Below, one piece after another: positions 5,006 through 60,315 of a stretch of DNA of 64,000 nucleotides. Each line of letters starts with the position of its first letter. The first letter of the stretch is position 1. The DNA is from Gammaproteobacteria bacterium (GTDB lineage Bacteria; Pseudomonadota; Gammaproteobacteria; Eutrophobiales; Eutrophobiaceae), in NCBI GenBank assembly GCA_965208655.1, contig CBDBPJ010000003.1:551790-615789 (forward strand), read 5' to 3'. The notes under the pieces are model-generated. The model searched no databases and was not told the DNA's origin. It worked only from the letters and a program-made list of their open reading frames with translations. A program made the translations under genes and the position numbers.

Positions 5006-5030
5006 GATTACCCCCTCGGGCACGGCGCAT

Positions 5031-13516: not shown

Positions 13517-13924
13517 TCAGCTGTCCGGGAGCAGGGCGATGACCTCGACTTCCAGCATCAGTTCCGGGACGACCAGGGCGGAGACCTGTACGCCGGTGCT
13601 GCAGGGCTTGTGATCACCGAAGTATTCCCTGCGTACCTCGAAGTAATCGGAGACTTTATCGTGGTCCGTGATATCGACAGTAAAAAACGTGGTCATCTTG
13701 ACCACGTCCTGAAAGCCAGACCCTGCTTCCTGCAGAATACCTCTTATATTTTCAAAAACCTGGCGGGTCTGTTGACGCAGGTCGCCGATACCGACGACGT
13801 TGCCGTCTGCGTCAAACGGGACCTGTCCGGAAAGAAAAACCAGGTTGCCTGTCCGGATACCCTGGGACAGTGGAAAATTTTCATCCCACCCCCAGCCTGG
13901 GTCTATGTATTGCATTTTGCTCAT
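13517..13924 (-). CDS. ridA: RidA/YjgF/L-PSP-family enamine/imine deaminase
   Basis: 135 aa; VFLSGQVP motif region and overall RidA pattern; start overlaps the hyuB stop (ATGA). Confidence 0.75.
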   Translation of the reverse strand: MSKMQYIDPGWGWDENFPLSQGIRTGNLVFLSGQVPFDADGNVVGIGDLRQQTRQVFENIRGILQEAGSGFQDVVKMTTFFTVDITDHDKVSDYFEVRREYFGDHKPCSTGVQVSALVVPELMLEVEVIALLPDS

Positions 13925-17452: not shown

Positions 17453-17456
17453 GGCA

Positions 17457-19763: not shown

Positions 19764-21929
19764 ATGCTCAAGTCAAGTAATTGCGCAAAATATCTTGCCA
19801 TGTTTTCGTGTGCGGCTTTATTCCTGTTCGATGCCGTTGCGACCTACTCGCAGGAGAAAGACAAGGGTGTCCTGGAGGAAGTGATAGTGACTGCGCAGCG
19901 GCGCACGGAGAATCTGCAGGATGTTCCCCTGGCGATCACCTCTTTTTCTGCCAGGAACCTCAGTGATAAAGGGGTCTATGACCTGTTTGGTCTCACGTCC
20001 CTGGCTCCTAACCTGGACATAGTGCAGAATAACGGTCGTGTGAAGGTATTTATCCGCGGCATCGGCCTCACGCTGGATAATTCGGGTTCCGAGGGCGCGG
20101 TTGCGGTACACCAGGACGGTGTCGTCATCGCCTATCCGAACTCGCAGGGCACCTCGTTTTACGATATTGAACGAATAGAGGTATTGCGCGGACCGCAAGG
20201 TACCTTGTTCGGCAGGAATGCAACGGGCGGCACGCTCAATATCATTACCCGGGGGCCGACGGAAGAGGTCAGTGTCAATGCCCGCGCCAACTTCGGCAAC
20301 TATGAGACACGGGAATTCGAACTCGGCGTCGGCGGGCCCCTGGTAGCAGACAAGTTATCGGCGCGTGCTGCGTTCTACAAGGTAGACAGGGACGGCTTCG
20401 GTGAAAACAGTTTTAACGGCCAGGATATCGACGATCGCGACGAGGTCGCGGCGCGCGGCAAGCTGAAGTGGCAGGTGACTGACCAGTTCACCGTGGTTGC
20501 GGCGATTGATTACTGGGACGCGGATGACTCGGGCGCGGTCGTGCATACCTTCGGCTCGGCGTTTGGTGAGTTACAGGGGGTTGTCGAGGGAGGTAACGGT
20601 AAACCGAGTTTCAGGGATATAGCAAGTGAAACCGAAGAAAGCCGGGATATGAGAACCTATGGCTACTCCCTGGATGTCACCTATGAAATCAACGAAAACT
20701 TCACCTTCAAGTCCCTGACGGGTTACCGCGATGAGCACAGCGTAAAGAAATCACAATATGACGGTACGGACAATCCCGGCTGGCCTTCCACCAATGTCAA
20801 TTCCGGCGTCCATTTCAGCCAGGAATTTCAATTGAACTGGGATACGGACAGGATCAATAGCGTGTTCGGGCTGTACTACTTCGATGATGACGTGTTTGTC
20901 ACCAATACGGTACCCTTCCAGTTCGGGATAAATCTGCCCGGAGACATCTTTGATGAACGGGGGCACGCAAAGACGGAAGCCTACGCGGCATTCGGCAGCC
21001 TGACCTGGGCGGCGACGGAACGGCTTAACCTGACTGCCGGTGTGCGCTACAGCGATGAAAAGAGAACGACGGAGAGTTCTTTCCAGCTCAAGATTCAACT
21101 GTTTGGCCTGGATTTGTTTATTCCGCTGAACAACCAGCGTAAATATGACGCCTGGACGCCGCGCTTCTCCATTGATTATGCCCTGACCGACGATGCCATG
21201 GTTTATTTCACCGCGTCCCGCGGCTTTAAAAGCGGGCAGATACTGCCGGGTAACACGGCCCCGCCGCTCAATCCCGAATTTATCTGGAGCTTTGAAGGGG
21301 GCATAAAGTCCGTGCTGTTTGACGACCGGCTGAAAGCCAACCTGTCGGCCTTCTATTACGATTACACGGATCTGCAGGTGAGCCAGTTGCTGGGCCTGTC
21401 GTTTACGCTTACCAATGCCGCGGCGGCCGACGCTATCGGAGTTGAGGCGGAACTTGCCTACCTGCTGACGGAGAATACCCAGCTGGAACTGGTCTACGGC
21501 TACCTGGATAATGAATTTACCGAATTTTTCACCCAGGATCCGATATTTCCGGAACTGGGCGTGTTGAACCTGAAGGGCAATCCGTTGCCCAATTCTCCCA
21601 AACACATGTTCACCCTGAGTGCGAGCCATACATACCCTAGCAGCCTTGGTGATTTCGACTTCCGGGTGGACTGGCGCTGGCGGGATACGGCCTATTTTGA
21701 CCCGTATAAACGGGATGTAGCCTCCCAGGACTCCTATTCAAATGTCAGCATGAGGGGCACGTTTCAACCGCGTAACCAGAACTGGTCTATCTCGGCCTGG
21801 GTCAACAACCTGACCAACAAGGATGCGTATATAACCAACTATATCAGCCTGGCCAGTGGCGGCTTCCCCCGTAACGGCGATATCAACGACCCGAGAACCT
21901 ACGGCATAGAGTTGCGTTACGAGATGTAA
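19764..21929 (+). CDS. TonB-dependent outer-membrane receptor
   Basis: Signal peptide; EEVIVTAQRR TonB box/plug region; 721 aa; unusual C-terminal residue Met. Confidence 0.8.
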   Translation: MLKSSNCAKYLAMFSCAALFLFDAVATYSQEKDKGVLEEVIVTAQRRTENLQDVPLAITSFSARNLSDKGVYDLFGLTSLAPNLDIVQNNGRVKVFIRGIGLTLDNSGSEGAVAVHQDGVVIAYPNSQGTSFYDIERIEVLRGPQGTLFGRNATGGTLNIITRGPTEEVSVNARANFGNYETREFELGVGGPLVADKLSARAAFYKVDRDGFGENSFNGQDIDDRDEVAARGKLKWQVTDQFTVVAAIDYWDADDSGAVVHTFGSAFGELQGVVEGGNGKPSFRDIASETEESRDMRTYGYSLDVTYEINENFTFKSLTGYRDEHSVKKSQYDGTDNPGWPSTNVNSGVHFSQEFQLNWDTDRINSVFGLYYFDDDVFVTNTVPFQFGINLPGDIFDERGHAKTEAYAAFGSLTWAATERLNLTAGVRYSDEKRTTESSFQLKIQLFGLDLFIPLNNQRKYDAWTPRFSIDYALTDDAMVYFTASRGFKSGQILPGNTAPPLNPEFIWSFEGGIKSVLFDDRLKANLSAFYYDYTDLQVSQLLGLSFTLTNAAAADAIGVEAELAYLLTENTQLELVYGYLDNEFTEFFTQDPIFPELGVLNLKGNPLPNSPKHMFTLSASHTYPSSLGDFDFRVDWRWRDTAYFDPYKRDVASQDSYSNVSMRGTFQPRNQNWSISAWVNNLTNKDAYITNYISLASGGFPRNGDINDPRTYGIELRYEM

Positions 21930-21951: not shown

Positions 21952-23415
21952 TTGGCTTTGTGCGCTGATACTGCCGGTTCTCAGGAAAGGAGATCCTTCT
22001 TACGGCAGTTGTTGCCGGCAGGAATATTACTGCTCTCTGTCTGTTCCGGCCATTCATGGGCCGGGGAAATACTGGCGCTGACAGGCGCCAGGATTATAGA
22101 CGGTAACGGTGGTCCAGCGCTGGAAGATGCTGTCGTAATAGTCCAGGGACAAAAAATTTCCGCAATCGGTCCCGCATCCGTCATCCCCGCAAACGCGCGT
22201 GTAATGGACCTTGCCGGCAAGACTCTCTTGCCGGGTCTCATTGATGCGCATATCCACATCGGCGGCAGTGGTGGCGGGTCTGCAGACCCGCGTGAATTCA
22301 CCCCTGCTGCTGTTGAAAACAGCCTCCTGAGTTACCTGAAGTTCGGCGTGACCAGTATTTACGATATGGCTGCACATCCCAGCCTCAATGCTATGAAAAC
22401 AGCGCTGGAGAGCGGTGAACTGACGGGTCCGAGGCTGTACGGCAACGGTTTCGGTATCACCGCCCCCGGTTCGCATCCCATCCGCCTGATTACCGAACTC
22501 GGACTCCTGGACTACCTGGGCCCTTTCTATTTCCAGGTTGACAGCGTGGAAGATGCTCAAGAGGCGGTACGCAGGATCAGTGCGGAGCAGGTTGACGGCA
22601 TCAAGCTGTTCCACTCGCGCGTCGAAGCCGGGACCACCCGGTTTGACGCCGACATGGACAAGTTAAAGCCCGCCATCCTCCGCACTGTGATTGAGGAAGC
22701 CCACGCCCGCAGACTGAAGGTTTATGCGCATACATCATTTCCCAGCGAGGCCGGGGAATTTGTTGAAGCCGGCGGTGATGTCATCGTGCACAGCATTCAC
22801 ATGGCCGAGACCGGCGCCCGGGACGTATTCGAATTGATGGCCGAACGTGATGTTGCCTATATCCCCACCCTCGCGGTGTTTGAAGGCGGCTATTCAACGA
22901 AACCCGGCTCTTTTGCTTCCCCACATCTTCATGACAAGGTATGGGATGTCCTGCTCGCGTCGATCACCGCTCCGGGCAGCGTGGTCCTGGCTTCCCGGAC
23001 TGTGCCCGGTCTTCTCAATGACAGGGAGCGCAGCCTGGAAATCTCGATGGCGAACCTGGCGCGGGCGCTGCAGGTTGGCGTCAAAATCGCAATGGGGAGT
23101 GACGCGGGCAATGCCGGGATGCTGCACGGCGCCACAGTACTGCGCGAACTGCAGTTGATGAACGAAGCGGGTATGACGCCGATGCAGGTGATCGTGGCTG
23201 CCACCCGGAACGGGGCCGAGGTCATCGGCCGGGGAGAGGAACTGGGCACTGTCGAGGCCGGCAAGCTGGCTGATATCATCGTCGTCAACGGCGACCCGTT
23301 ACAGGACCTGTCTGCCCTGGGCAATGTCGAACTGGTGGTGAAAAACGGCAAGATTATCAACCCCGGGGAACTGGAGTTCAAGGAAGTACCACAACCAACT
23401 GGGGACGGGTTTTAA
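21952..23415 (+). CDS. Tat/Sec-secreted amidohydrolase-family protein, paralogous to 3620-5005
   Basis: RRSFLRQLL N-terminus; GLIDAHIHIGGSG and GKLADIIVVNGDPLQD amidohydrolase motifs. Confidence 0.75.
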   Translation: MALCADTAGSQERRSFLRQLLPAGILLLSVCSGHSWAGEILALTGARIIDGNGGPALEDAVVIVQGQKISAIGPASVIPANARVMDLAGKTLLPGLIDAHIHIGGSGGGSADPREFTPAAVENSLLSYLKFGVTSIYDMAAHPSLNAMKTALESGELTGPRLYGNGFGITAPGSHPIRLITELGLLDYLGPFYFQVDSVEDAQEAVRRISAEQVDGIKLFHSRVEAGTTRFDADMDKLKPAILRTVIEEAHARRLKVYAHTSFPSEAGEFVEAGGDVIVHSIHMAETGARDVFELMAERDVAYIPTLAVFEGGYSTKPGSFASPHLHDKVWDVLLASITAPGSVVLASRTVPGLLNDRERSLEISMANLARALQVGVKIAMGSDAGNAGMLHGATVLRELQLMNEAGMTPMQVIVAATRNGAEVIGRGEELGTVEAGKLADIIVVNGDPLQDLSALGNVELVVKNGKIINPGELEFKEVPQPTGDGF

Positions 23416-23499: not shown

Positions 23500-24270
23500 T
23501 TAAAGTAATCTATTAATACTCTTGCTTAATTGTGCGAATATGAACTTGGGGAAAAACCGGCTCATGAACCAGAGCTGGTTAGCTACGCCAATGCGAATTT
23601 CGTAGTTATCTTTTGCAAAATCTTTCAGGAACGCCGCAACCATTTTTTCTACGGGCATTATCGGAACGCCTTTAATATCTTCTTCATCAAAGCCTCCTAA
23701 CATCCCTGTTTCGGTAAGAGGAGGGGCCAGTTCGAAGACCTTGATTGCTGTATTCCTTAATTGCGCTCTCAATGACAATGTATATGAGTGAATGGCGGCC
23801 TTGGTCGAACAATATACCGGAGTAATCGGCAGAGGGACAAATGCCAGCCCGGAGCTAACATTGACGATTGCGGGGTTGTTGTTGTGCCGCAATAGCGGCA
23901 GAAAGGCGTTGTTCATCAACATGGTCCCTTTCAGGTTAATATCGATTTCCTGCGTCAGATATGTTGCGGAAAGGTTGCCGCTGCGCAGGTTGAGCGCTTG
24001 CATGATGCCTGCATTATTGATCAGTATATTTAGATCGGGATAGTCTTTTACGGCCTGCTGGTGGAGTTTTTCTACGTCGCCGGGGTTACTGACGTCATTC
24101 CTGATTATCGTCACACCTCCCAGTTGTTGTTTCGCGTCCTGGAGTTTCTTCTCATCCCGCCCCGTAATAACGACCTTATTGCCCTTTAGTAAAAACTGCC
24201 TGGCCATCTCAAAACCGATACCGCTCGAACCGCCTGTAATCAGGATGGTGTTACCGGATAATTTCATCAC
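23500..24270 (-). CDS. Short-chain dehydrogenase/reductase (SDR)
   Basis: TGGSSGIG cofactor motif and YCSTKAA (YxxxK) catalytic motif; gene is notably AT-rich. Confidence 0.85.
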   Translation of the reverse strand: MMKLSGNTILITGGSSGIGFEMARQFLLKGNKVVITGRDEKKLQDAKQQLGGVTIIRNDVSNPGDVEKLHQQAVKDYPDLNILINNAGIMQALNLRSGNLSATYLTQEIDINLKGTMLMNNAFLPLLRHNNNPAIVNVSSGLAFVPLPITPVYCSTKAAIHSYTLSLRAQLRNTAIKVFELAPPLTETGMLGGFDEEDIKGVPIMPVEKMVAAFLKDFAKDNYEIRIGVANQLWFMSRFFPKFIFAQLSKSINRLL

Positions 24271-25475
24271 TAACTCCGGGTCCAGGCACGCAGGGTCCTG
24301 ACAGCGACTTCGTTTTCGATTTCCCCGGGGACATTTTGCGGGCCTGCCGGCAATGATTGACCATTTGTCGCGAGATAGGCCAGGGACAGGGATTGCAGGG
24401 CAAGACCCAGGTCCATAATCTCGATGGGATTGCCGTCACCGGCGCTCAGGTTAATACTGTTACCCCTGCCGAACAGGTAAACGATTTTACCGTTATCCAG
24501 CTTGAATTTCTGGATATCCGGCATGATTTGGTGTGGTTCGGAAGCCAGTGCGTGCAGGCCGGGCAGGTCGATCTCGTTTTCAAATGCCCCGGCGTTGCAT
24601 ATTACGGCGCCATCCTTCATCAGCGCCAGGTGATCCCGTTTGAGTGCTCCCGGTCTGCCGGTGACGGTAATGACGATGTCACTGACCGGTAACGCCTGTT
24701 CCAGTTCAGCCGTATGATAACCCTCCAGGTGCGCTTCCAAGCGCGTCAGGGGGTCGATATCGACTATGGTTACATGCGCCCCCAATCCGCGCAAGGCGCG
24801 GGCGATACCCTGGCCGCAATAACCATAACCGATGACAGCTACCCGCTTTCCGCCGATAAGCAGGTTGGAACAGCGCATGATGCCGTCGAGCACACTCTGG
24901 CCGACGCCGTAACGGTTTTCGACAATGCGTTTTGCCCGGGTATCGTTAATTATGAGGGTGGGGAAGATATGTTCGTCAATGTCCTCGCGTAAGCGGAAAC
25001 CGCCGGTGGTAGTTTCTTCGGTGGCGCCGAGCAGCTTCGCCTTAGCGCCGGAAAAGTCCGGATTGGTATGCGCCAACATATGCAATTCTGCGCCATTATC
25101 GGCAATCATGTCGGGTTCGGTGGCTAACACCTTTGCCGCGTAATCAAGGTGCTGGTTGGTGGTTTCACTTCTTTTGGCAAATACCCGGACGTTGTATTCT
25201 GCCACCAGCGCGGCAGCCACCTCATCCTGGGTAGTTCCGGGCCAGCCGGTGATTACGACCTCCGCACCGCCGCTGGTCAGTGCGTCCATCCAGACGCCGG
25301 TCTTCGCTTCCACATGCAGGCAGATACCGATACGCATGCCTGCAAAAGGCTTGGTCCTGCTGAAATCCTCCTTGATCCGGCCTAATACCGGCATCCGTTC
25401 GCGCACCCAGTTTATTCGATCCAACCCTTGTTGCGCGAGTTCGATATCTTCAATTTCGTAGGTAAAATCAGGCAC
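24270..25475 (-). CDS. Adenosylhomocysteinase-like (short SAHH-family) protein
   Basis: N-terminal YEIEDIELAQQGL...RMPVL and IGICLHVEAKTGVWMDAL...GAEV...TQDEVAAAL match the SAHH architecture; GYGYCGQG NAD-binding motif. Confidence 0.6.
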   Translation of the reverse strand: MPDFTYEIEDIELAQQGLDRINWVRERMPVLGRIKEDFSRTKPFAGMRIGICLHVEAKTGVWMDALTSGGAEVVITGWPGTTQDEVAAALVAEYNVRVFAKRSETTNQHLDYAAKVLATEPDMIADNGAELHMLAHTNPDFSGAKAKLLGATEETTTGGFRLREDIDEHIFPTLIINDTRAKRIVENRYGVGQSVLDGIMRCSNLLIGGKRVAVIGYGYCGQGIARALRGLGAHVTIVDIDPLTRLEAHLEGYHTAELEQALPVSDIVITVTGRPGALKRDHLALMKDGAVICNAGAFENEIDLPGLHALASEPHQIMPDIQKFKLDNGKIVYLFGRGNSINLSAGDGNPIEIMDLGLALQSLSLAYLATNGQSLPAGPQNVPGEIENEVAVRTLRAWTRS

Positions 25476-25516: not shown

Positions 25517-27040
25517 TCATAAGACGCGCCGGAAACCGGGTTTGCCGTACTCAACGACAAAACGCGCCAGGTCAAAGACTCCGGATTGCGCATCCCTGAC
25601 ATTATCTACCGCGCGTGCGGTCGCCTGCCACTCCTTCGCACTGACTTCGTGTAACAGGTAGCCGCGTTTGTCCGGTTCATAGAACTTTATCTGTGGGTTG
25701 CGTTCCAGGTTGTCGGTTATGGGTTTGTCCATCTGGTCGGGCCAGTTGGCCGAGATGGAGGAGACCACAAACTCTACCCCTGGAAAGCGGTCAGCTATTG
25801 CTGTGGACCGCATGCCGTCTATGGCCCAGAAAGAGTGCATGTCACCGCTCAGGATCACTGCCTGGCCCGCGTTGCTGCGCTTGATTGCATCCACGACCCT
25901 GTCCCTGTTGGCCGGGTAACCATCCCAGGAACCTGCAAAATTATAGGTTTTGCCGTCAATGTCCAGGTTGAACGGCGAAAACACGCTGGAGGAGGCGATC
26001 ACGTTCCAGGGAGCGTGGTTTGCCAGGATATTATGCGTCAGCCAGTTGTTCTGCTCCTCACCCAGCATGCTGCGCTGGTCAGCGAACATTTCAGGACAAC
26101 GTACCACGTAGTTGCCGAATCCATGGGGGGACCTGTCACCGGGGCATGGCATCTGCCTGGCGCGGAATTGGCGGGTGTCGAGGAAATTGACCTGCGCAAG
26201 TTCTCCCATCTGGATAGTCCGCCTGATGCGGAACCGGTTATCACCGGGGTTGCCGTAACCGCGGGTCGGCATGTGCTCATACCAGGCCTGGTAGGCCGCC
26301 GCCCGTATCGCCATGGTAGCCGGATCGGCATCAATTACCGCATCATGGTTATCAAGGGTGCAAAAGAAGGGCAACCAGGCATGAGCCTGTTGAAGGCTTT
26401 CATCGGTTTTGTACAGCGCGTGGCGGCGCCGGAAACCGTCAAGCGTCGGCGGCATGTCTTCGGTCTCGTGTCTGCGGAAGGTCTCACCGTAGGATGTTTC
26501 ATAGATATAGTCGCCCAGATGAATCACGAAGTCCGGGTCATCCGCAATGATATGGTCGTAAGCGACGAAAGAACCGTGCGTGTAGTTCTGGCAGGACGCG
26601 GTGACGAAACGTATTGAACCAGGCTTGCTGCCGGGAGCGGGCAGGGTCTTTGTACGGCCCTTTGCCGAGGTGTATGAGCCTGCGTTGAACCGGTACCAGT
26701 ACACCTGCCCCGGTTCAAGGTCCCGGATGTCGGCATGTACCGAATGGCCAAGCTGCGGGACAGCCGGTTCTTCGCCACTCCTGACAAGTTGTTGCATGTC
26801 CTCATCCCGGAACAATTCCCAGCGTACCGGTATGGCGTCCCGGCCAAGTCCGCCATCGGTAGCCAGCGGTTGCGGCGCGAGCCGGGTCCACAACACCACC
26901 GAGTCATGCGTCATGTCACCGGAGGCTATCCCCAGGGTAAACGGGTTTCTGTCGAACCTGGCCTCTGCGACAAGCGGTGAGGAAACTTGTGCGGCGGCCA
27001 GTCCAAGGGTAGAGCTGATAATGAATTCCCGCCTTTTCAT
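25517..27040 (-). CDS. PhoD-like phosphatase/phosphodiesterase with Tat signal
   Basis: MKRREFIISSTLGLAAAQ Tat signal; calcineurin-like metallophosphoesterase pattern (GDYIYE, DNHD). Confidence 0.7.
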   Translation of the reverse strand: MKRREFIISSTLGLAAAQVSSPLVAEARFDRNPFTLGIASGDMTHDSVVLWTRLAPQPLATDGGLGRDAIPVRWELFRDEDMQQLVRSGEEPAVPQLGHSVHADIRDLEPGQVYWYRFNAGSYTSAKGRTKTLPAPGSKPGSIRFVTASCQNYTHGSFVAYDHIIADDPDFVIHLGDYIYETSYGETFRRHETEDMPPTLDGFRRRHALYKTDESLQQAHAWLPFFCTLDNHDAVIDADPATMAIRAAAYQAWYEHMPTRGYGNPGDNRFRIRRTIQMGELAQVNFLDTRQFRARQMPCPGDRSPHGFGNYVVRCPEMFADQRSMLGEEQNNWLTHNILANHAPWNVIASSSVFSPFNLDIDGKTYNFAGSWDGYPANRDRVVDAIKRSNAGQAVILSGDMHSFWAIDGMRSTAIADRFPGVEFVVSSISANWPDQMDKPITDNLERNPQIKFYEPDKRGYLLHEVSAKEWQATARAVDNVRDAQSGVFDLARFVVEYGKPGFRRVL

Positions 27041-27148
27041 CGCGTTATCATAGCAGGTAGAGTTTTACAGGCGTATGATCCTGTCCAATTCCGGCTGGAA
27101 CAGGCTTGCCGGGGAACAGGTTGAAACAAATTTAACAAGGTAATTACC

Positions 27149-27625
27149 ATGTCGACAAACCAGCTGAGCAGCGCCAGGATGGAAGCGATAATGCGTGAAT
27201 ATTACGACGGTTGCAACGAGGCTGACCGGGAAAAGATAACGGGGTGTTTCACGCCCGATGCGGTGCATTATTTCCCACCGGGCATGTACGAAGGACCGTT
27301 CCGCGGCGCCGCGAAGATTGCCGAACGCTGGTGCACAGCCGTGGAAAAGAGCGGTTCGTACTGGACCATTGACGCCTTGTTAATCGATGCGGACAAGGCC
27401 GAGGCGGTGATCGAGTGGAGCCATTTCAAAACAGGACAGGGGACCGTCTTGCGTGGCGCCGAATGGGTTGTGTTTGACAGGGTATCAGGATTGATGCAGG
27501 AGATCCGGGCCTATTATGCGTCGCCGCAGGCAGCGGACCTGAAGCGCCTGGAACTGGGCGGCTTCGATTACGAGGGGCGCGGTTACGAGATGGTTTCTCC
27601 CAGGGGTCGCTCAGCCGGCCAGTAG
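27149..27625 (+). CDS. SnoaL/NTF2-like small protein
   Basis: 158 aa; pattern typical of SnoaL-like polyketide-cyclase-fold proteins. Confidence 0.45.
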   Translation: MSTNQLSSARMEAIMREYYDGCNEADREKITGCFTPDAVHYFPPGMYEGPFRGAAKIAERWCTAVEKSGSYWTIDALLIDADKAEAVIEWSHFKTGQGTVLRGAEWVVFDRVSGLMQEIRAYYASPQAADLKRLELGGFDYEGRGYEMVSPRGRSAGQ

Positions 27626-28648
27626 CCCTGCCAGTTGCCGGTGGCTGCCGATAATGCGGTAGGCCCCGGCGCCGCATAAACTGGCTGAGGTGCCGGCGCC
27701 CGTGAGCACTCCTATCGGCACGACACCCGCAGCGTGGCTCGCCTGCATATCGATCATACTGTCGCCCACGTAAACCGTATCGGCCGGATCGGCATCCATA
27801 CGCCCCAGGCATTTCAGCAGGCCTTCCGGATCGGGCTTGCGTTGCTCGACGTCGGCGCCGGTAACCACTGCGTCGAATAACCCGGCTACGCCCTGTTCAT
27901 ACAGTAAATCCAGTGATCTTTCTCCGGAACCCGTAACAATGCCGAGCCGGTATCCAGCGCTTTTTAATCCGGATAATGTCCCGGACACGCCGGGGAATGC
28001 GAGCGCATGGGCCTTGAATACATCAGGCCAGAGTTGCATGGCCCTGTCGTTCAGTTTATGGACCATGGCCGGGCGGTTCTCAACGGAGGCAGGTACTACC
28101 TGATCCCAGTAGGAGATGCCGTTATTCAGCGTCTCATACATGACCGCTTTGGATACTTCCAGGCCGAATTCAGCTCCGGTCGTTTTGGCAAGCAGGTAAA
28201 ACGCGCCGACCGTGTCCACCAGCGTCCCGTCCAGGTCGAACAAAATGTTGCTTGTCCTGACGGGTTCGATGACATCCAGGCGCAGGCGGTCGCCGTCGTC
28301 CAGGGATAAGTGCCGGCGCAGTGAGACCGAGGTAATAACTTCCACCTGGTCTTCCGGGTAATCGTTGATTTGCGGAAAGATAATCGCCCCGGTCACACGC
28401 CTGTTGATATGCACCGGATAACTCCGCGCATGACAGTTATTCCCGTCAGGGCTGTTTATGCCGATACCGTGCCTGTCCCTGAGCGATTGCCAGTTCGAGA
28501 GGGTCCGCTTATCATCGATTTTTATGTTGAGGGTACCGGGCCACGCATCAATACCCAGTTTCTCCAGGAATTGCTGTTTTGCGTGTGTAAGTTCGGTAAA
28601 ACCCGCGGCTTGTCCTGTCCCGGTTACTACCCGGCCGGATAATTCCAA
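27611..28648 (-). CDS. Fusion protein: N-terminal CTP-dependent (archaeal-type, DUF120) riboflavin-kinase domain + C-terminal HAD-superfamily phosphatase domain
   Basis: N-terminal GRVVTGTGQAAGF...GTLNIKIDDK...GAIIFPQ...DGD aligns by eye with MJ0056 RibK; C-terminal FDLDGTLVDT (HAD motif I) and VGDSMIDMQAS; start placed at TTG one nt after the upstream stop, with AAGGAG upstream; the track ORF runs to 28750 but overlaps the upstream gene. Confidence 0.6.
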   Translation of the reverse strand: MELSGRVVTGTGQAAGFTELTHAKQQFLEKLGIDAWPGTLNIKIDDKRTLSNWQSLRDRHGIGINSPDGNNCHARSYPVHINRRVTGAIIFPQINDYPEDQVEVITSVSLRRHLSLDDGDRLRLDVIEPVRTSNILFDLDGTLVDTVGAFYLLAKTTGAEFGLEVSKAVMYETLNNGISYWDQVVPASVENRPAMVHKLNDRAMQLWPDVFKAHALAFPGVSGTLSGLKSAGYRLGIVTGSGERSLDLLYEQGVAGLFDAVVTGADVEQRKPDPEGLLKCLGRMDADPADTVYVGDSMIDMQASHAAGVVPIGVLTGAGTSASLCGAGAYRIIGSHRQLAGLLAG

Positions 28649-28649
28649 G

Positions 28650-29114
28650 TCAATACGTCTCCTTTTGTATTTCGGCGGCGCGATGAATCGCGGCGCGGAT
28701 GCGCTGGTACGTCCCGCAACGGCAGATATTGCCTGACATGGCCTCGTCAATATCAGTGTCGGATGGCGCGGGATTGTCAGTCAGCAGGGCGGCGGCAGAC
28801 ATCAGTTGTCCCGACTGGCAATAGCCGCACTGGGGCACCTGCAATTCCAGCCAGGCCTGCTGCACGGGGTGATAACCGTCCTTGGCCAGGTGTTCGATAG
28901 TGGTAATATTTTTGTTGCCTATACTGCTCGCGGGGAGCACGCAGGAGCGCATGGGTTTTCCGTCAACGTGAACGGTACAGGCGCCGCACTGGGCTATTCC
29001 GCAACCGAACTTGGTGCCGGTCAGGCCGATCTCGTCCCGCAGCACCCACAGCAGCGGCGTGTCCGCTTCGACGTCAACTTCAATTTGCCGGTCATTAACG
29101 TTGAGTTTAATCAT
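28650..29114 (-). CDS. [2Fe-2S]-binding small subunit of the xanthine-dehydrogenase/aldehyde-oxidase family (IorA/CoxS-like)
   Basis: [12 protein letters not shown] and CGYCQSGQ ... CRCGTY cysteine clusters; 154 aa; no molybdopterin subunit adjacent. Confidence 0.85.
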
Positions 29115-29207
29115 GTCTTTTCTGCACCAGGGTTACACCAGGAAGTGAACTCCGCACAATATAATCCAGAATTTGATATTTTTGTATCGTTTTTTACCTG
29201 TTATCGG

Positions 29208-30839
29208 TTATTCCGGATCAACACATGCAAAGTTCTCATGCGCATCGATACTGCCGGTCCCGCGGTACCTGGAAACCCGGGGCCAGGCGCATAACGGCCG
29301 TGTCCTGGTCACTTTGCCCTGTTCTACCCGGTGGCCGGTAAGGTCCCGCGGTATGACATCGCCTTCCACCCAGTTGATCAGCGGCGTCATCAAATCGAAC
29401 CGGTCCACGTTCACCCCGCCGTTGCAGTGGTGCATGCCGGGGACCAGGTAAAGTTGCAGAAACCCGGAAATTTCATCGCCCAGCAGTGCGGCTACTTCAT
29501 GGTAATACTCGACGGTGCGCAGGGGGTTGATGCCGAAATCAGCCCAGCCGTGGTAGATGATCATTTTTCCGCCACGCCGCTGGAAGGGCCTGAGATCGGG
29601 GTCTGTTGCATTGAAAATCAGCCCTGATTGCAGCGTGCGCGGGTAGTCCCGTTCCGGATCCAGTTCCCGCCAGTCCCGGTTGGCGTCATCCGTTTCGAAA
29701 GCGAGGTACTGGAACCAGGACTTGACGATAAACGACTGCCCCAGTCCGCCTTTACTGTCGGGGACTGCGCGCCCGTCCCACGCCGATTGCGGCGCAACGG
29801 GCGTATAGGTGCCGTCGGCATAGGCGAGCCCCGGAAACTCGCCGCCGATGACGGTGCGGGGATAGATTGCCGTCTTGCCGATAAAGGTGGGCCCGTAGAT
29901 GACTGCCAGGGTGTTGATTTCAGCATCCGTGAAACCCTGCTGCGTTCCCTGCATACGGGGCAAATCCCGTTGCGGGTCGAAATCCACGGCAGGCGGGTTC
30001 CCGATAACGCCGTCTCTTACCCCGTCAGCTTCATCGTAGCGTTTGAGGATAATATCCCCCAGCAGTTCAAGCTTTTCCCGGGACAGGGGAGCGTCGGCAA
30101 CCGCCTGCTGGATATTCCGGTATTGCCAGATCATCTCCCTGAGGCTGAACACAGGCGCGCCGGCAAGGATACCGTCGAAATCGGCCGGGAAACGTTGCGC
30201 CTCGTTAAACCCCTGCAAACCGCCGGTCGAGCAGCCGTCAAAATAAGAATACCCCGGCGCCTTCCCGTAGTATGCCGCGGCAAGGTTTTTAGCCGTCAGC
30301 GCAGTCAAATGCACCGCACGGAACCCGAAATCGATCTCTTTCTGCAGGTTATTGTGCGCCCAGGTACCGCCTCGCTCCGTGGCCGCGTCGTGGCCGGTGT
30401 TGGTAAACGCCGCGGCAAATCCATGCCGCGCCGCCTTCAGCCGCGCCATGTGGCCGGCCTCATCATCCAGCGCTTCCCCTGCATAACCCCCGTTGCCGTG
30501 CATGTACAGACGTCCGTTCCAACGGGTGGGCAGGTAGACGATGTAGCGGACTTCGGGGCTGATCACCCCCCGCACCACGCACAGATCCGGCATGCCGGCT
30601 GCTGCCGTTGCCAGGGTGGCGGATAATACGCTGTTGTCCGCGTCGGAAACATGGATGAGGTCTGCGCAGCCTATACGGGGTTGCGTTACTTCGGGTGCGG
30701 TGTAATCGATACGGGATTGTTCCGCATCAAGAAAGCTTGAACCGTTCGCGGTCGGGGTCGCCGGCGCACCAGGCGTGAAAAAAACCACTGCAAGCGCCGC
30801 CGCGACGGACCGGATGGTAAGCTTGCAGGGAAATCTCAT
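29208..30839 (-). CDS. Secreted tannase/feruloyl-esterase-family hydrolase (paralog 1)
   Basis: Start placed at internal ATG MRFPCKL with signal peptide; GCSTGG catalytic-serine motif; C-terminal Cys-rich lid region. Confidence 0.8.
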   Translation of the reverse strand: MRFPCKLTIRSVAAALAVVFFTPGAPATPTANGSSFLDAEQSRIDYTAPEVTQPRIGCADLIHVSDADNSVLSATLATAAAGMPDLCVVRGVISPEVRYIVYLPTRWNGRLYMHGNGGYAGEALDDEAGHMARLKAARHGFAAAFTNTGHDAATERGGTWAHNNLQKEIDFGFRAVHLTALTAKNLAAAYYGKAPGYSYFDGCSTGGLQGFNEAQRFPADFDGILAGAPVFSLREMIWQYRNIQQAVADAPLSREKLELLGDIILKRYDEADGVRDGVIGNPPAVDFDPQRDLPRMQGTQQGFTDAEINTLAVIYGPTFIGKTAIYPRTVIGGEFPGLAYADGTYTPVAPQSAWDGRAVPDSKGGLGQSFIVKSWFQYLAFETDDANRDWRELDPERDYPRTLQSGLIFNATDPDLRPFQRRGGKMIIYHGWADFGINPLRTVEYYHEVAALLGDEISGFLQLYLVPGMHHCNGGVNVDRFDLMTPLINWVEGDVIPRDLTGHRVEQGKVTRTRPLCAWPRVSRYRGTGSIDAHENFACVDPE

Positions 30840-31047
30840 GGCTAATATCTTAAGCTTTGGGATTCCCGCTTTCAACTCTGCCCGGTACGGCCGCAACGCT
30901 TCCGGCAGGGCGCCAGGTTTATTTGATATGTAAAAAACAGGTATTATGGCCAAATCAACGTATGCCGGAAACGGGATCAGCATTCAGTTCTGTTCCACCG
31001 GAACCTTTCCGGAATACTGTGCAGTTTAATACAAACCAGGGTATCTC

Positions 31048-33129
31048 ATGTCGAGTGAAGGAATAAGAATCGGTATTGACACCGGGGGCACTTTTACCGA
31101 TTTTGCCTTGTCAAGGGACGCTGTTTTCCACACCACCAAGATACTGACCACCCACCAGGCGCCGGAACTGGCGATCATGCAGGGACTGGATGACCTGATG
31201 AAGGCTACAGGTTGCCGCCCTGGCGATGCGGAATTGATCATCCATGGCACCACGCTGGCCACCAATGCCGTCATCGAGCACAAGGGCGCCAGGGTGGCCA
31301 TGCTTACAACGGAGGGGTTCCGGGACGTTCTGGAACTGGGTTCGGAAAGCCGGTTTGATCAATATGATCTCGGCCTGACCAAGCCCGCCCCCCTGGTGCC
31401 GAGGCAACTGCGGTTTACCATTTCCGAACGCCTGGCGGCAGACGGCAGCGAATTGCTGCCGCTTGACCTTGCAGCCATCGAACAGGTTGCCGAAGAGTTA
31501 AAAAGACACGAAATAGACAGTGTCGCGGTTTGCTTCTTGCACAGCTTTATCAACCCCGAACATGAAGAACGGGCCGCGCAGGCGTTGCGCAAACACTTGC
31601 CGGGTATCTATCTCAGCCTGTCATCCCGGGTGGCGCCGGAGATCAGGGAGTACGAACGCTTCTCCACGACGGTCGCCAATGCCTATATCCAGCCGTTGAT
31701 AGATTCCTACCTCAAGCGCCTGCAGGAGGGCTTGAAACAGGCAGGATTTGGTTGTCCGCTTTACATGTTCGTATCCAACGGCGGACTGGTTGAAGTGGAC
31801 GTGGCCAGGCAGTTCCCGATCCGGCTGGTTGAATCCGGGCCGGCCGGCGGCGCCGTCTTTGCGAGCCATGTCGCCCGTATCCACCAGGAGGATCGCATAT
31901 TGTCGTTCGATATGGGCGGCACTACTGCGAAAATCTGCCTGGTCGACAATGCGGAACCGCAGAAGGCGACCCTGTTCGAGATGGCGCGGGCGCATCGCTT
32001 TAAACAGGGCAGCGGCCTGCCGGCCAGGATACCGGTGATCGAGATGGTCGAGATCGGCGCCGGTGGCGGGTCCATTGCCCGGGTCGACAGTCTTGGCCGT
32101 ATAACAACAGGTCCCGACAGCGCCGGTTCTGAACCGGGACCGGCCTGTTATGACCTTGATGGCGATGAGGCAACGGTAACCGATGCCGATCTCATCCTGG
32201 GGCGGCTGGAGGCGGAGGGATTCGCCGACGGTTCCATGCGACTCAACAGCGAGGCTGCCAGGCAGGCAGTCCGGGAGAAGCTTGCCGGGCCGCTGCACAT
32301 GGATATTCCGCTGGCCGCCTACGGTGTGGCTGAGATCGTGGAAGAAGATATGGCCAACGCAGCGCGTGAGCATGCAACGGAAAGCGGAAAATCGCTGACC
32401 GGGCGAACCCTGGTTGCCTTCGGCGGCGCGGCGCCGTTACACGCGCTTTCCCTTGCAGGCAAGCTCGGGATCAAGCGGGTAATCGTTCCGGCCCATGCAG
32501 GAGTGGGTTCGGCGATAGGGTTCTTACTGGCGCCCGTTGCTTATGAACTTGCCCGCAGTTGTCACGTCAGGCTGACTGATTTCAAGCCTGGAGTATTGAA
32601 CAAGCTGTTTAAGGAAATGAGTGAATACGCACACGGAATAGTCGCATCAGGCGCTCCCGGGCGGGGACGTACGGAAATCCGGCAGGCACAAATGCGCTAT
32701 ATCGGGCAGGGCTATAGTATTCCTGTCGATGTGCCGGTCGGGAAGTTGCTCAAAACTGACACACAGTCACTGCAAACGGCTTTCGACAAGGCCTATATCA
32801 ACCTCTACAGCAAGCTGCATGACGGGGTTGACGTGGAAATTGTCGGTGTCAGTGTTTCCGTTTCCGCCCATCTTGTTTTCGCAGAGCCTGCAGAAACTGC
32901 CGTGACTGCCGCCGGCATTCCGCCTGAAATCGATCATGGCGCCACCATGTTCGATGCACAGGCCGGCGCTTACGCGGACGTAAACGTGTATTCACGTCAT
33001 GCCCTGCAACCGGGGAATTACATACCGGGGCCAACCCTGGTGCGCGACAAGGGCACAACTGTCATGGTGCCGCAGGGTCACGGTGTCACGGTGGCCGGGG
33101 ACGATAGTTTGATCATCGAAAGGGAATAA
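31048..33129 (+). CDS. Hydantoinase A/oxoprolinase-family subunit (HyuA-like)
   Basis: IGIDTGGTFTDF N-terminal signature; 693 aa. Confidence 0.9.
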   Translation: MSSEGIRIGIDTGGTFTDFALSRDAVFHTTKILTTHQAPELAIMQGLDDLMKATGCRPGDAELIIHGTTLATNAVIEHKGARVAMLTTEGFRDVLELGSESRFDQYDLGLTKPAPLVPRQLRFTISERLAADGSELLPLDLAAIEQVAEELKRHEIDSVAVCFLHSFINPEHEERAAQALRKHLPGIYLSLSSRVAPEIREYERFSTTVANAYIQPLIDSYLKRLQEGLKQAGFGCPLYMFVSNGGLVEVDVARQFPIRLVESGPAGGAVFASHVARIHQEDRILSFDMGGTTAKICLVDNAEPQKATLFEMARAHRFKQGSGLPARIPVIEMVEIGAGGGSIARVDSLGRITTGPDSAGSEPGPACYDLDGDEATVTDADLILGRLEAEGFADGSMRLNSEAARQAVREKLAGPLHMDIPLAAYGVAEIVEEDMANAAREHATESGKSLTGRTLVAFGGAAPLHALSLAGKLGIKRVIVPAHAGVGSAIGFLLAPVAYELARSCHVRLTDFKPGVLNKLFKEMSEYAHGIVASGAPGRGRTEIRQAQMRYIGQGYSIPVDVPVGKLLKTDTQSLQTAFDKAYINLYSKLHDGVDVEIVGVSVSVSAHLVFAEPAETAVTAAGIPPEIDHGATMFDAQAGAYADVNVYSRHALQPGNYIPGPTLVRDKGTTVMVPQGHGVTVAGDDSLIIERE

Positions 33130-33137
33130 CCGTCATT

Positions 33138-34796
33138 ATGATTAATAATAACTTTAAGTTATCATTGCAACATATTGAATTTCAAGTGATATGGCGTCGC
33201 TTAATCTCTATTGTGGAAGACCAGGCCAGGACCTTGATGAAGACCGCGTTCAGCCCCGTGGTACGGGAATCCGGCGACCTGTCCGCAGCCGTGTTCGACC
33301 CGCAGGGGCGCATGCTGGCCCAGGCCATTACCGGCACACCCGGGCACGTCAATTCAACCGCTGCCGCGGTACCGCATTTCCTCAGGGAATACCCGCCGGC
33401 GGAACTAAAACCCGGCGATCACCTGATTACCAATGACCCGTGGATTGCGTCGGGGCACCTGCACGACGTCACGGTCGTGTCCCCGGTATTTCTTGCAGAC
33501 AGGTTAATCGCGCTGTTTGCCTGCACCTGCCACCAACTGGATATCGGTGGCTTGGGGCAGGGGCCTGACGGCAAGTCGGTATATGAAGAGGGACTGTATA
33601 TTCCCGTTATGAAACTGGTTGACCGGGGTGAGGTAAACCAGGATTTACTCAGGATAATTGAGGGTAACGTACGCACACCCTACGAAGTGCGGGGCGATAT
33701 CCTGTCCTATGTTGCTGCAAACGAGACCAGCGGCGTGAAACTGCTGGATATGATGCGGGAATACGGACTGGATAATCTCGATTATACCGGGAACGAGATT
33801 ATCGAACGCTCGCGCCAGGGGATGCTGGAAGAAATCCGCAAGCTGCCGGCAGGGACTACCCACAACAGCATCACCCTGGACGGGTATGACAAGCCGGTTG
33901 AAATTGTCTGTGCGCTGACCGTTGCTGATGACGAGATAAGGATCGACTTTACCGGCAGCACCGAGGCAAGCACCAAGGGTATCAACCTGGTCCTGAATTA
34001 CACCCAGGCCTATGCCAACTACGGTATACGCTGTGTGGTGGGCGCCCACATCCCCAACAATACCGGCTCGTTATCGCCGATAAAAATAAGCGCACCGGAG
34101 GGTTCTATCCTGAATGTCCAGCGACCCTGGCCGGTCTGTGCCAGGCATATTATCGGGCAATTCCTGCCGGACGCGGTAATGGGTTGCCTGGCGCAACTAC
34201 TTCCAGAGAAAGTCCCGGCGGAAGGCGCGTCATCCCTGTGGGGCGTTCAAATCCGCGGCGGGCCGGAGGTGGACGCCTCGTGCAATTATGACAACTCGAA
34301 TGCGGACGGGAGGCGTTACGAAATGCTGATTTTTAACAGTGGCGGAACCGGCGCCAGGCCCGACCAGGACGGCATGTCGGCCACGGGGTTTCCCAGCGGG
34401 GTGCGCGCCATGCCTGTTGAGGTTGTGGAAAACATGGGTCCCGTGGTGATCTGGCGCAAGGAACTGCTGGCCGATTCCTGCGGCGCCGGCGAATGGCGCG
34501 GCGGCCTGGGACAGGTCGTGGAAGTGGGGACCATCGATGAGAGTCCGTTCCTGCTGTTCGCCATGTTTGACAGGACTGCGAATCCGGCCCGCGGCCGCAT
34601 GGGCGGCGAACACGGCAAGGTCGGAACAGTCCGGGTAAAGCACGGCAAAACCCTGAATCCGAAAGGCGTACAACTCATAGAACCCGGACAGCGACTGGAG
34701 CTGCTGCTCCCGGGGGGAGGCGGCTTCGGAGACAAGGGGCAGCGCAGCGCTGCACACCTGGAACAGGATAAGCTGGCCAGCCTCGTCAGCGATTAA
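33138..34796 (+). CDS. Hydantoinase B/oxoprolinase-family subunit (HyuB-like)
   Basis: ITNDPW...GHLHD and GGGGFGD motifs; 552 aa; 8-nt gap to hyuA. Confidence 0.85.
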   Translation: MINNNFKLSLQHIEFQVIWRRLISIVEDQARTLMKTAFSPVVRESGDLSAAVFDPQGRMLAQAITGTPGHVNSTAAAVPHFLREYPPAELKPGDHLITNDPWIASGHLHDVTVVSPVFLADRLIALFACTCHQLDIGGLGQGPDGKSVYEEGLYIPVMKLVDRGEVNQDLLRIIEGNVRTPYEVRGDILSYVAANETSGVKLLDMMREYGLDNLDYTGNEIIERSRQGMLEEIRKLPAGTTHNSITLDGYDKPVEIVCALTVADDEIRIDFTGSTEASTKGINLVLNYTQAYANYGIRCVVGAHIPNNTGSLSPIKISAPEGSILNVQRPWPVCARHIIGQFLPDAVMGCLAQLLPEKVPAEGASSLWGVQIRGGPEVDASCNYDNSNADGRRYEMLIFNSGGTGARPDQDGMSATGFPSGVRAMPVEVVENMGPVVIWRKELLADSCGAGEWRGGLGQVVEVGTIDESPFLLFAMFDRTANPARGRMGGEHGKVGTVRVKHGKTLNPKGVQLIEPGQRLELLLPGGGGFGDKGQRSAAHLEQDKLASLVSD

Positions 34797-34874: not shown

Positions 34875-36548
34875 CTACTCCTCGGGTATCTCGACGCCGT
34901 AATCCTGTTTTGCCCCCGTTGACGTGATAAAGCCTCTTCGATAGTCTTCGCGGACTTTTTCACCGGGGCGTTTTCCGGGGTCGCCGAAGCCCCCGCCGCC
35001 GGCTTCCCGGATGGTAAGAAGGCCCCCTGCAGGTAACGTATGCGTGCCTTTGCCCGGGACGGGTTCGTTATTGATCCTGAAGGCGCGCAATCCGCCGTCC
35101 CTGCCGCCCGCATAGCCTTTGGCGGGGTATTCCGTGCGTATTCCAAACAGGGCAAGCGATATTTGATGGCCCGTGTTGTTTTTCAGCACGACCTGTTGCC
35201 CCGGACCCCCGCGGTATTGGCCTGCCCCGCCTGAATCGGGGAGTATGCGCCGCTCCAGCACGGCAATTTCCGTTTCGTCTTCCCAGATTTCGCTGGATAT
35301 CATTGCGCAGTTTGTCGGCGCGGGCGTGGTTTGCCGGCCGTCCAGTCCGGTCATGGCGCCGATCCCGCCGGTGGCGAAATACTGGTCGAGCAGCCTGTCT
35401 CCATTCCGCAGCGTGCCGTTGAACACGACCGCCGTCGCCATCCCCGGTTCGGCCTGGACGGCTTCAGGCAGTGCCCTGGCAAAGGCGCCCATCAGCAGCG
35501 GCACGACATACCAGCCTACCGTATTGCGTCCCAGGGTGGCTGCCGGGTGTTGAGCATTCAGGATACAGCCTTCCGGGGCCGTCACGTCCAGGGGCAAGAC
35601 GTTGGCAAGGTTGTTTGGCAGGTCCGGTGTTGTCAGGCATTTCAGGGTGTATGCGCACCAGGAACGGGTATAGCAGAGCGGGACGTTTATTGCGTAGGGC
35701 ACGCAGGGACTGGTGCCGGCAAAATCGATTTTCACGCGGCCGCTTTTTATCTCCAGGGTGCAGGCCAGGGTAACGGGTTGTTCGCCCTGTGTTTCAGCTT
35801 CCAGTTGATTGTTGTAGACACCATCCGGCATGGCGAGGATCTTTTCCCTGACAGCCGTATCCGACTGCCTGATGATGCCGTCGGCAATAGCCTGTAAATC
35901 TTCCCGTTCATACTGGTCCAGCATCTCGTTCAGTTTTACGCCGCCGGCATAAGTACCTGAAATATTGGCCATAATGTCTCCGGCCACCTGCTCCGGCGCG
36001 CGCACGTTGCCTTTTATGATATCCAGCAATTCTTCATTCAACTGCCCTTGCCGGTAGATCTTCAGTGGTGGGATTAGCAAGCCCTCTTCGTAAATATCCC
36101 TGCTCGATATGGATGCGCCCCTGCCGCCGGTATCGACGAGGTGGCTAATGGTCATGACGAAACCAATAAGATCGCCATTGCGGAATACGGGCCTCAATAC
36201 GCTGACATCCGCAATATGGCCGGTGCCTATCCACGGGTCATTGGTAATGATGACGTCACCGTCTTCCAGGCTGTGCGCGGGATAGCTTTCCAGCAGTTTT
36301 TCGATGGTATAAAAGGCGGTGCCGGTAAAAGCAGGTGTACTTTGCGAACCCTGGGCAATGGGGCGTCCCGAGCGGTCGAATATGACGGCGCCTGCGTCCC
36401 ATGCCTCCCTCACGGTCATGGAAAAAGAGGTATGGACCAGTGCCAGGAGTATTTCATCTGCAATGGAGATGAGACGGTCCCAGAGGATCCCCAGGGTGAT
36501 GATATCCAGCGAGTTATTGTTCATGGCGCTCTGAAACCGGCGAGGCAA
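34875..36548 (-). CDS. Hydantoinase B/oxoprolinase-family subunit (HyuB-like)
   Basis: ITNDPWIGTGHIAD and GGGGFGDP motifs; start may be the internal MNNNSLD at 36524. Confidence 0.85.
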   Translation of the reverse strand: MPRRFQSAMNNNSLDIITLGILWDRLISIADEILLALVHTSFSMTVREAWDAGAVIFDRSGRPIAQGSQSTPAFTGTAFYTIEKLLESYPAHSLEDGDVIITNDPWIGTGHIADVSVLRPVFRNGDLIGFVMTISHLVDTGGRGASISSRDIYEEGLLIPPLKIYRQGQLNEELLDIIKGNVRAPEQVAGDIMANISGTYAGGVKLNEMLDQYEREDLQAIADGIIRQSDTAVREKILAMPDGVYNNQLEAETQGEQPVTLACTLEIKSGRVKIDFAGTSPCVPYAINVPLCYTRSWCAYTLKCLTTPDLPNNLANVLPLDVTAPEGCILNAQHPAATLGRNTVGWYVVPLLMGAFARALPEAVQAEPGMATAVVFNGTLRNGDRLLDQYFATGGIGAMTGLDGRQTTPAPTNCAMISSEIWEDETEIAVLERRILPDSGGAGQYRGGPGQQVVLKNNTGHQISLALFGIRTEYPAKGYAGGRDGGLRAFRINNEPVPGKGTHTLPAGGLLTIREAGGGGFGDPGKRPGEKVREDYRRGFITSTGAKQDYGVEIPEE

Positions 36549-41744: not shown

Positions 41745-41765
41745 GCCCTGATCGGTATCAGGGGA
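41745..41765. terminator. Short GC hairpin (ccctgat-cggt-atcaggg) between convergent genes
   Basis: 7-bp stem overlapping the tannase-2 stop codon; no T-tract. Confidence 0.25.
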
Positions 41766-56812: not shown

Positions 56813-56928
56813 CACCCTTGAGAAACAGGTGCGAAGCACCGGGAATAATCCCCGGGAGTGAAGCTGTTTAGCGCGCATGGAAGTCAGTCACCTTGGTCGC
56901 TGTCCGAAAAACATTTTATTTGCGGAAA

Positions 56929-57018: not shown

Positions 57019-57064
57019 AGTTATGTAGATGTGATCCTACTACAGTTTGCTATCATGCCGATCT

Positions 57065-60312: not shown

Positions 60313-60315
60313 CCG

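Follow-up and report, generated by a model that had tools for sequence, protein, structure and literature searches.

A stretch of 64,000 nucleotides of gammaproteobacterial DNA (contig CBDBPJ010000003.1, positions 551,790 to 615,789 of the forward strand; "the window" in what follows) carries at positions 27611-28648, on the minus strand, a gene whose product was confirmed, by comparing its sequence and its predicted structure with known enzymes, as an archaeal-type riboflavin kinase domain (RibK, or DUF120) joined to a HAD phosphatase with all its catalytic motifs. To judge from protein comparisons this fusion is not a one-off: it is a member of a large uncharacterised bacterial family, and the window gene joins known types of enzyme in an uncharacterised bacterial variant. 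RibK kinases have been described as confined to Archaea, their orthologues being said to be absent from Bacteria (PMC5397151); we find here a sizeable bacterial subfamily with an active-site signature peculiar to it and with fusions to several partners. Its genes are strongly enriched beside those of the UbiX/UbiD system, and it is this unreported association of the wider family that gives the finding its value. It makes the RibK-like proteins a candidate new component in the supply of the cofactor prenylated flavin mononucleotide (prFMN), and both (de)carboxylase biocatalysis and the understanding of anaerobic aromatic degradation are held up in practice by the difficulty of obtaining active holo-UbiD. 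The clustering with UbiX/UbiD and with flavoproteins resembling pyridoxamine 5'-phosphate oxidase (PNPOx-like) is the strongest functional lead, and it was absent from the first-pass annotation of this DNA, whose observation is confirmed by the results below and whose interpretation is partly supported.

The gene is read from a TTG codon (28646-28648) to a stop codon (27611-27613) and specifies 345 amino acids. Residues 1-132 (28253..28648) contain a match to PF01982 (CTP-dep_RFKase, DUF120) at residues 7-126, which spans profile positions 1-121 (E 1e-26, 93.7 bits against a cut-off of 25), and residues 135-345 (27614..28246) a match to HAD_2 at residues 135-313 (E 2e-31, 109.8 bits against 23.8). 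When the N-terminal domain was compared with the sequences of the PDB by phmmer, RbkR of T. acidophilum (3cta/5trd) and MJ0056 were matched over the whole domain, with E 8.5e-11 and 2e-10 respectively. The AlphaFold model of this domain (pLDDT 86.6) was aligned by Foldseek with 5trd at a TM-score of 0.83 (E 2e-8) and with 2vbu at 0.76; entries for RibK or RbkR are the sole fold matches at E < 1e-3, the next-best folds having E > 0.05. The first-pass annotation had recognised both domains from the letters alone and had made its claim depend on a structural match to DUF120 RibK; this match is found, and the claim stands. An artefact of gene fusion or a frameshift is ruled out by the recurrence of the 345-residue architecture in more than 120 clusters and by the model of the full-length protein (pLDDT 93.7, pTM 0.92).

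The C-terminal domain is, by its sequence, a HAD-IA phosphatase whose catalytic motifs are intact: D138-x-D140, the T/S of 'IVTGS', K271 and D296/D300, that is motifs I-IV, are invariant in 69 homologues. Its best Foldseek matches are 3d6j (TMt 0.86), 3kbb, AlnB (4ex6) and the pyrophosphatase BT2127. Every NCBIfam equivalog cut-off is missed, those of phosphoglycolate phosphatase (Gph) included (TIGR01449, 107.3 bits vs 180; NF009695, 95 vs 225), and PpaX is matched at E 4e-20.

The more than 120 clusters of full-length proteins which combine PF01982 with HAD were obtained by a protein search and are 41-99% identical to the window fusion, so that the question raised by the first-pass annotation, whether the fusion occurs in other bacteria, has a positive answer. 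Named homologues come from Gammaproteobacteria, Betaproteobacteria, Anaerolineae/Anaerolineales and Geobacter argillaceus. Public databases give them no other label than 'HAD-IA family hydrolase' or 'phosphoglycolate phosphatase', and hundreds of entries so named conceal a kinase domain. At E <= 1e-3 a profile of the N-terminal domain matched 1814 representatives (50% clusters), of which 973 also passed E <= 1e-10. The best 150 of these matches include fusions of about 350 residues with the kinase at the N-terminus, many stand-alone proteins of about 130 residues, and proteins of the reverse order, HAD–kinase. That HAD and kinase are joined in both orders argues for a real functional coupling. 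Among the same 150 matches the RibK-like domain is also fused to a PNPOx-like protein, to type-2 isopentenyl diphosphate isomerase (IDI-2), to a transporter of the major facilitator superfamily (MFS) and to a glyoxalase; the representatives are P0291, P0284, P0302 and P0245 in that order, and P0283/P0298 for the reverse-order HAD-IA fusions. The IDI-2 part of the IDI-2–kinase fusion reaches 348 bits with TIGR02151 (cut-off 281), and in one metagenomic locus (L108) UbiX and the kinase domain share one reading frame.

The gene neighbourhoods were studied in 80 loci retrieved from metagenomes with the kinase domain as seed: 46 hold a stand-alone copy, 32 a HAD-fused copy, and 2 are cut by a contig end. 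As a control, the same tblastn search was run on 80 generic HAD-phosphatase loci (1.29 Mb, 2.5 times the DNA of the kinase loci), which came from a scan with the full-length fusion alignment, the generic HAD motifs of which retrieved ordinary HAD phosphatases only. UbiX or UbiD is present in 35 of the 80 RibK-like loci and in none of the 80 control loci (Fisher p = 5e-13, on metagenomic loci that are phylogenetically non-independent); for the fused class alone the count is 5/32 (p = 0.0015). The control loci likewise contained no PNPOx-like or CoxS gene. This association is observed most often among the stand-alone copies: UbiX lies directly upstream of 22 of the 29 that have enough upstream DNA, and 13 of 16 stand-alone loci of at least 5 kb hold UbiX or UbiD. 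The UbiX-linked proteins of about 130 residues belong to Thermodesulfobacteriota/Syntrophaceae. Two loci, L139 and L178, are clusters of the phenylphosphate-carboxylase type, with UbiD paralogues, HAD-like delta subunits and Phenyl_P_gamma, and both end in ubiX followed by the ribK-like gene (9315-10402 in L139, 7409-8387 in L178); in L178, from a Syntrophaceae metagenome-assembled genome, these two genes overlap by 8 nt.

The immediate neighbours of the fusion genes were classed with regard to strand. UbiD adjoins the HAD-fused copy in L095/L096/L098, L105 and L111, and lies less than 10 kb from it in L001, L092, L090 and L002. The order in L105 is UbiD–fusion–PNPOx-like with overlaps of 4 nt, and further along the locus are genes for GntR, UbiD, HAD, phenylphosphate-synthase-like proteins and NUDIX. 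In L086/L087, L101, L103, L117 and L002 the fusion is coupled to a PNPOx-like gene upstream of it. A homology of the PNPOx-like neighbours to the prFMN maturase PhdC found no support in sequence: phmmer against the PDB gave a weak match to Rv2991 (E 7e-4) for one subtype and none for the other. In the open-access literature we found no description of a RibK/DUF120–HAD fusion or of a riboflavin kinase beside ubiX. The window gene itself is tied to prFMN indirectly, by the evidence at the level of the family and by two relatives with UbiD nearby.

Small proteins encoded in ubiX/ubiD operons, the chaperone LpdD and the maturase PhdC/YclD, aid the supply of active prFMN (PMC13040415, PMC10865409). 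The bacterial RibK-like genes sit at the same kind of operon position and differ from these by their RibK-like fold and by their chemistry, presumably that of a kinase.

The active site was examined with the residue list published for RbkR and RibK (PMC5397151), 44 fused and 46 stand-alone bacterial domains being aligned with MJ0056 and RbkR. In RbkR numbering, G102, T131, L132, N133, P185, Y190, E195 and R203 are all kept in the window kinase domain, and T131, N133, P185, Y190 and E195 are invariant in the whole bacterial set. In the window protein the GTLN motif is T39-L40-N41, and E103, L110-R111, P92 and Y97 are found as well. The glycine loop (Gly102/104/106 of RbkR) reads G10, G12 and A14; the third glycine, a backbone contact, is replaced by alanine. 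The nucleotide-binding motif as a whole (glycine loop, Thr131-Leu132-Asn133, Leu202-Arg203) is present. Four of the six flavin contacts are kept, namely F17 (Tyr109, here as Phe), P92, Y97 and E103. The domain shares about 40% of its residues with stand-alone bacterial copies and only 27-33% with archaeal RibK/RbkR. We concluded from these alignments that it is very probably active, with a pocket of the flavin type which has been remodelled.

Compared with the kinase domain of archaeal RibK (MJ0056) and RbkR (PF01982, EC 2.7.1.161), the window domain shares the cradle-loop-barrel fold (TM 0.76-0.83), the GTLN phosphate motif, the first and second glycines of the loop, the Leu-Arg nucleobase loop, Glu195, Pro185 and Tyr190. 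It differs in being bacterial and fused to HAD, whereas the archaeal proteins are free-standing or fused to a winged helix-turn-helix, and in several residues: Ala or Val for Tyr115, a variable Phe165, Gln for the Glu of the loop, Ala for its third Gly, and a new Cys72. In plants, AtFMN/FHy is a bifunctional riboflavin kinase/FMN hydrolase (FMN, flavin mononucleotide) in which a HAD phosphatase and a riboflavin-kinase domain form one polypeptide. The likeness to the plant fusions noted in the first-pass annotation is a fair one; the window protein also has a HAD and a riboflavin-kinase-type domain in one chain. The plant order is HAD first, which the reverse-order bacterial relatives copy, whereas the window order is kinase–HAD; and the plant kinase, without relation in sequence, is ATP-dependent and of the PTAN type, whereas that of the window is of the archaeal GTLN type and belongs to PF01982, not to the Flavokinase family.

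We lean, with a confidence only somewhat above even, towards the view that the window protein would be a bifunctional enzyme, a flavin kinase with a phosphatase of the flavin pathway, and that the RibK-like domain would serve across bacteria as a local supplier of FMN. Most likely, the N-terminal domain would use a nucleotide to form the 5'-phosphate of riboflavin or of a near analogue of it; we infer both the substrate and the donor, and riboflavin is named as a presumed substrate because the flavin site is no plain copy of that of archaeal RibK. The HAD domain would have its place in the same flavin-cofactor route. As its substrate we favour FMN, which would give a kinase/phosphatase homeostasis as in plant AtFMN/FHy; the riboflavin precursor 5-amino-6-ribitylamino-2,4(1H,3H)-pyrimidinedione 5'-phosphate (ARPP) comes second and dimethylallyl pyrophosphate (DMAPP), converted to dimethylallyl phosphate (DMAP) for UbiX, third. 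The evidence agrees best with a kinase which makes FMN near its consumers, and these would be mainly UbiX with the UbiD decarboxylases, and also PNPOx-like flavoproteins and type-2 isopentenyl diphosphate isomerase.

A number of observations weigh against this view. Two of the six residues contacting FMN in archaeal RibK are altered in the window domain. Tyr115, which together with Glu195 has been termed 'absolutely conserved' in the FMN site (PMC5397151), is Ala23 in the window protein and Ala or Val in all 90 bacterial copies, preceded by Trp or, in the clade of the window, by His; Phe165 is Asn71 in the window protein and its clade and is variable in the bacterial copies. A new cysteine, Cys72 in 'CxARCYPV', is invariant and specific to the bacterial group. 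With altered flavin contacts and this cysteine, a modified flavin could be the true substrate. The NCBIfam equivalog cut-offs for RibK are also missed by a wide margin (ribK_Meth NF040694, 64.1 bits vs 168; NF010762, 77.9 vs 279). As to the neighbourhoods, the 64 kb of the window contain no UbiX, UbiD or PNPOx-like gene, UbiX is adjacent to 0/24 HAD-fused copies, UbiD is found in only 5/18 HAD-fused loci of at least 5 kb, and some fused copies lie in unrelated contexts (PIN toxin, rubrerythrin, ring-hydroxylating dioxygenase). The non-independence of the metagenomic loci counts on the same side. We list here as well the fact that neither an FMN riboswitch nor any other Rfam family was found in the window, L001, L002, L086 or L105, which is in itself neutral.

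The changes in the pocket (Tyr115 to Ala/Val beside Trp or His, Phe165 to Asn, the new invariant Cys) would suit a kinase re-purposed for a flavin with a prenyl group or another modification, for a deazaflavin or for a catabolite of the lumazine/pterin type, the kinase and the phosphatase then forming a salvage or detoxification pair in heteroaromatic catabolic islands. Contexts rich in molybdenum (Mo) hydroxylases, amidohydrolases, hydantoinases, UbiD and NicX agree with this, and the enzymes used in a published lumazine/pterin pathway are just such a set (Mo-dehydrogenase, amidohydrolase type, prFMN decarboxylase; PMC12391406). However, the four flavin contacts out of six and all the residues of phosphoryl transfer are kept, and fusions to FMN-dependent IDI-2, to PNPOx-like proteins and to UbiX are best explained by ordinary production of FMN; we hold such a re-purposing to be rather improbable.

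A narrower version of a role in flavin supply would make the system a module dedicated to the precursors of prFMN, in which the kinase would provide FMN and the HAD domain would trim DMAPP to DMAP, these being the two substrates of UbiX, while the coupled redox protein, 2Fe-2S in the window and PNPOx-like elsewhere, would reduce FMN or oxidise prFMNH2. The enrichment of UbiX/UbiD and the UbiD–fusion–PNPOx operon point in this direction; so do the IDI-2–RibK fusion, which ties the synthesis of DMAPP to the kinase, and the similarity of the HAD domain to the HAD-type pyrophosphatases PpaX and BT2127. Moreover, according to PMC13040415 it is not known what serves physiologically as oxidant when prFMN matures in anaerobes, and the known maturase, PhdC, is small and binds flavin. 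Set against these points, besides the absence of UbiX and UbiD from the window and of UbiX beside the fused copies, are the stand-alone UbiX-linked copies, in whose loci no HAD-IA partner was found, the PNPOx-like neighbours, which match no solved structure by sequence beyond the weak one of Rv2991, and the NUDIX gene of L105, which could already make DMAP. Such a module seems to us to have a small chance of being the right description. In its most general form the idea would turn the RibK-like kinases into the missing accessory enzymes of prFMN, handing FMN and possibly, through HAD, DMAP to UbiX, while coupled redox partners (PNPOx-like for the most part, IorA-like 2Fe-2S in the clade of the window) would reduce the flavin or oxidise prFMNH2 anaerobically; we offer this as a speculation, doubtful though not far-fetched.

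The gene which precedes the fusion gene, at 28650-29114 on the minus strand, specifies a CoxS/IorA-type protein of 154 residues (Fer2 + Fer2_2, E 2e-31) with two [2Fe-2S] sites, its eight cysteines forming two canonical four-Cys patterns at 38/43/46/58 and 96/99/131/133. Its stop codon TGA (28650-28652) is followed by one nucleotide and then by the TTG of the fusion gene, for which the Shine-Dalgarno AAGGAG (28659-28664, minus strand) is embedded in the final codons of the 2Fe-2S gene and precedes TTG by 10 nt. The first-pass annotation had described this junction; it is read directly from the sequence and is kept in five relatives (66-86% identity), which gives six genomes with the window, the ribosome-binding site being GGAG/GGGAG. 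In the preferred reading, that of a local supplier of FMN, the co-translated 2Fe-2S protein would be a redox partner or a client of the flavin made there, as it holds the operon position which is occupied elsewhere by the PNPOx-like flavoprotein; the functional link between the two proteins is presumed on this ground.

The 2Fe-2S protein resembles the IorA/CoxS subunits of Mo-hydroxylases of the xanthine-dehydrogenase family by its Fer2 and Fer2_2 domains, its eight cluster-binding cysteines and an identity of 72-77% to hundreds of Steroidobacteraceae proteins annotated as 'isoquinoline 1-oxidoreductase alpha / (2Fe-2S)-binding'. Unlike the genes of those subunits, it is accompanied by no Mo-binding subunit in the 64 kb and is followed by the kinase–HAD gene instead. 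No homologue of MoCoBD or CoxL was found anywhere in the window, either by tblastn or by Pfam scans of the large open reading frames; a Mo subunit hidden in the window is thus ruled out, and the first-pass annotation was right that no molybdopterin large subunit follows. Its word 'orphan' has to be divided: it suits the window and three relatives, in which no MoCoBD gene lies within the DNA read, and does not suit L001 and L092, the only relatives in which an IorB-like MoCoBD gene stands about 3.5 kb away on the opposite strand, without a 2Fe-2S gene of its own.

The arrangement could be incidental, the 2Fe-2S protein being an ordinary, detached IorA whose IorB is encoded elsewhere and the fusion a housekeeping phosphatase whose gene came to lie downstream by chance. 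The lone IorB-like gene of L001 and L092 would be accounted for in this way, as would the high identity to typical 'IorA' entries and the public labels 'HAD-IA hydrolase' and 'phosphoglycolate phosphatase'. This is possible and in our opinion unlikely: the junction of stop codon, one nucleotide and TTG with its internal ribosome-binding site is kept in six genomes despite reshuffled flanks, four of these six genomes show no Mo subunit within the DNA read, none is found within 5 kb of the close and abundant IorA-like relative P0167 either, the phosphoglycolate phosphatase equivalog cut-off is missed (107 vs 180 bits), and the kinase domain of the fusion is under clear purifying selection.

Elsewhere, a very abundant IorA-like 2Fe-2S protein of Steroidobacteraceae (P0167; L175-L177, 5001-5459), 75% identical to that of the window, has no Mo subunit within 5 kb and is flanked by a divergent Pyr_redox_2 flavoprotein and a class-III aminotransferase. 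Its context is a hint that a whole clade of such CoxS-like proteins may be free-standing ferredoxins, and as it too lacks a Mo subunit, it is plausible that the 2Fe-2S protein of the window is a free-standing ferredoxin. In L090 (3378-14871) a fusion 52% identical to that of the window lies between a CoxMSL Mo-hydroxylase/NicX/MFS set and a T4-deiodinase-like gene with a split XdhC and a MocA-like cytidylyltransferase, UbiD being found after another 8.8 kb. Here the fusion is linked a second time, and independently, to Mo-hydroxylase clusters which need the molybdopterin cytosine dinucleotide cofactor.

The six genomes (the window, L173 with 86% identity, L174 with 78%, L001 with 74%, L092 with 71% and L093 with 66%) have in common a block in the order 2Fe-2S – fusion – (SnoaL, convergent) – PhoD – adenosylhomocysteinase, and its flanks vary from genome to genome. 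In the window, the SnoaL-like gene (27149..27625, plus strand, 158 residues; SnoaL_2, E 3e-12) overlaps the 3' end of the convergent fusion gene by 15 nt; copies 81-85% identical are at the same place in L001, L092, L093 and L173, and L174 has none. The PhoD-like phosphatase (25517..27040, minus strand; PhoD_N + PhoD), which begins with a twin-arginine signal (MKRREFI...), is encoded downstream of the fusion in all six genomes and probably belongs to a separate transcription unit. It is followed in L001, L092, L173 and L174, as in the window, by an adenosylhomocysteinase-like gene (24270..25475, minus strand, 401 residues; NF004005, 419.8 bits vs a cut-off of 275). On the other side, 93 nt upstream of the 2Fe-2S gene, is a gene of the tannase/feruloyl-esterase family (29208..30983, minus strand; PF07519, E 9e-92), which probably starts only near 30836, the point from which relatives align with it (30800 in the tblastn alignment); L001 and L174 have this gene at the same position, L092 and L173 do not. 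A scan of 27000-31200 for promoters and terminators gave no more sites than shuffled sequence, and none that is convincing between the tannase and 2Fe-2S genes. L001 and L092 have UbiD, a CoxD-like AAA gene, a CoxE-like VWA gene and the IorB-like MoCoBD gene 3.5-8.5 kb upstream, UbiD being the one at 8.5 kb; the CoxD-like and CoxE-like genes are absent from the 64-kb window.

The remainder of the window has the look of an island for the catabolism of N-heterocycles or aromatic compounds. It contains four paralogues of the tannase/feruloyl-esterase family (29208-30983, 41758-43383, 53619-55220 and 55223-56878), two of them in tandem; at least three hydantoinase/oxoprolinase A+B sets (13921-19520, 31048-34796 and 34875-38625), one with two B genes; amidohydrolases at 3620-5125 and 21952-23415; and TonB-dependent receptors at 9700-12756 and 19764-21929. 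A Mu-type transposase (rve + Mu-transpos_C_2) at 46388-47578, and 47554-48408, is about 18 kb from the fusion gene, which fits with the rearranged flanks among the relatives. Finally, a block of ABC/MacB-FtsX permease and AttH/CrtC-lipocalin genes is found at 57047-61491 in the window and at 5033-9429 in L173; it adjoins the 2Fe-2S gene in L173 and lies about 28 kb from it in the window, and this points to a local rearrangement.

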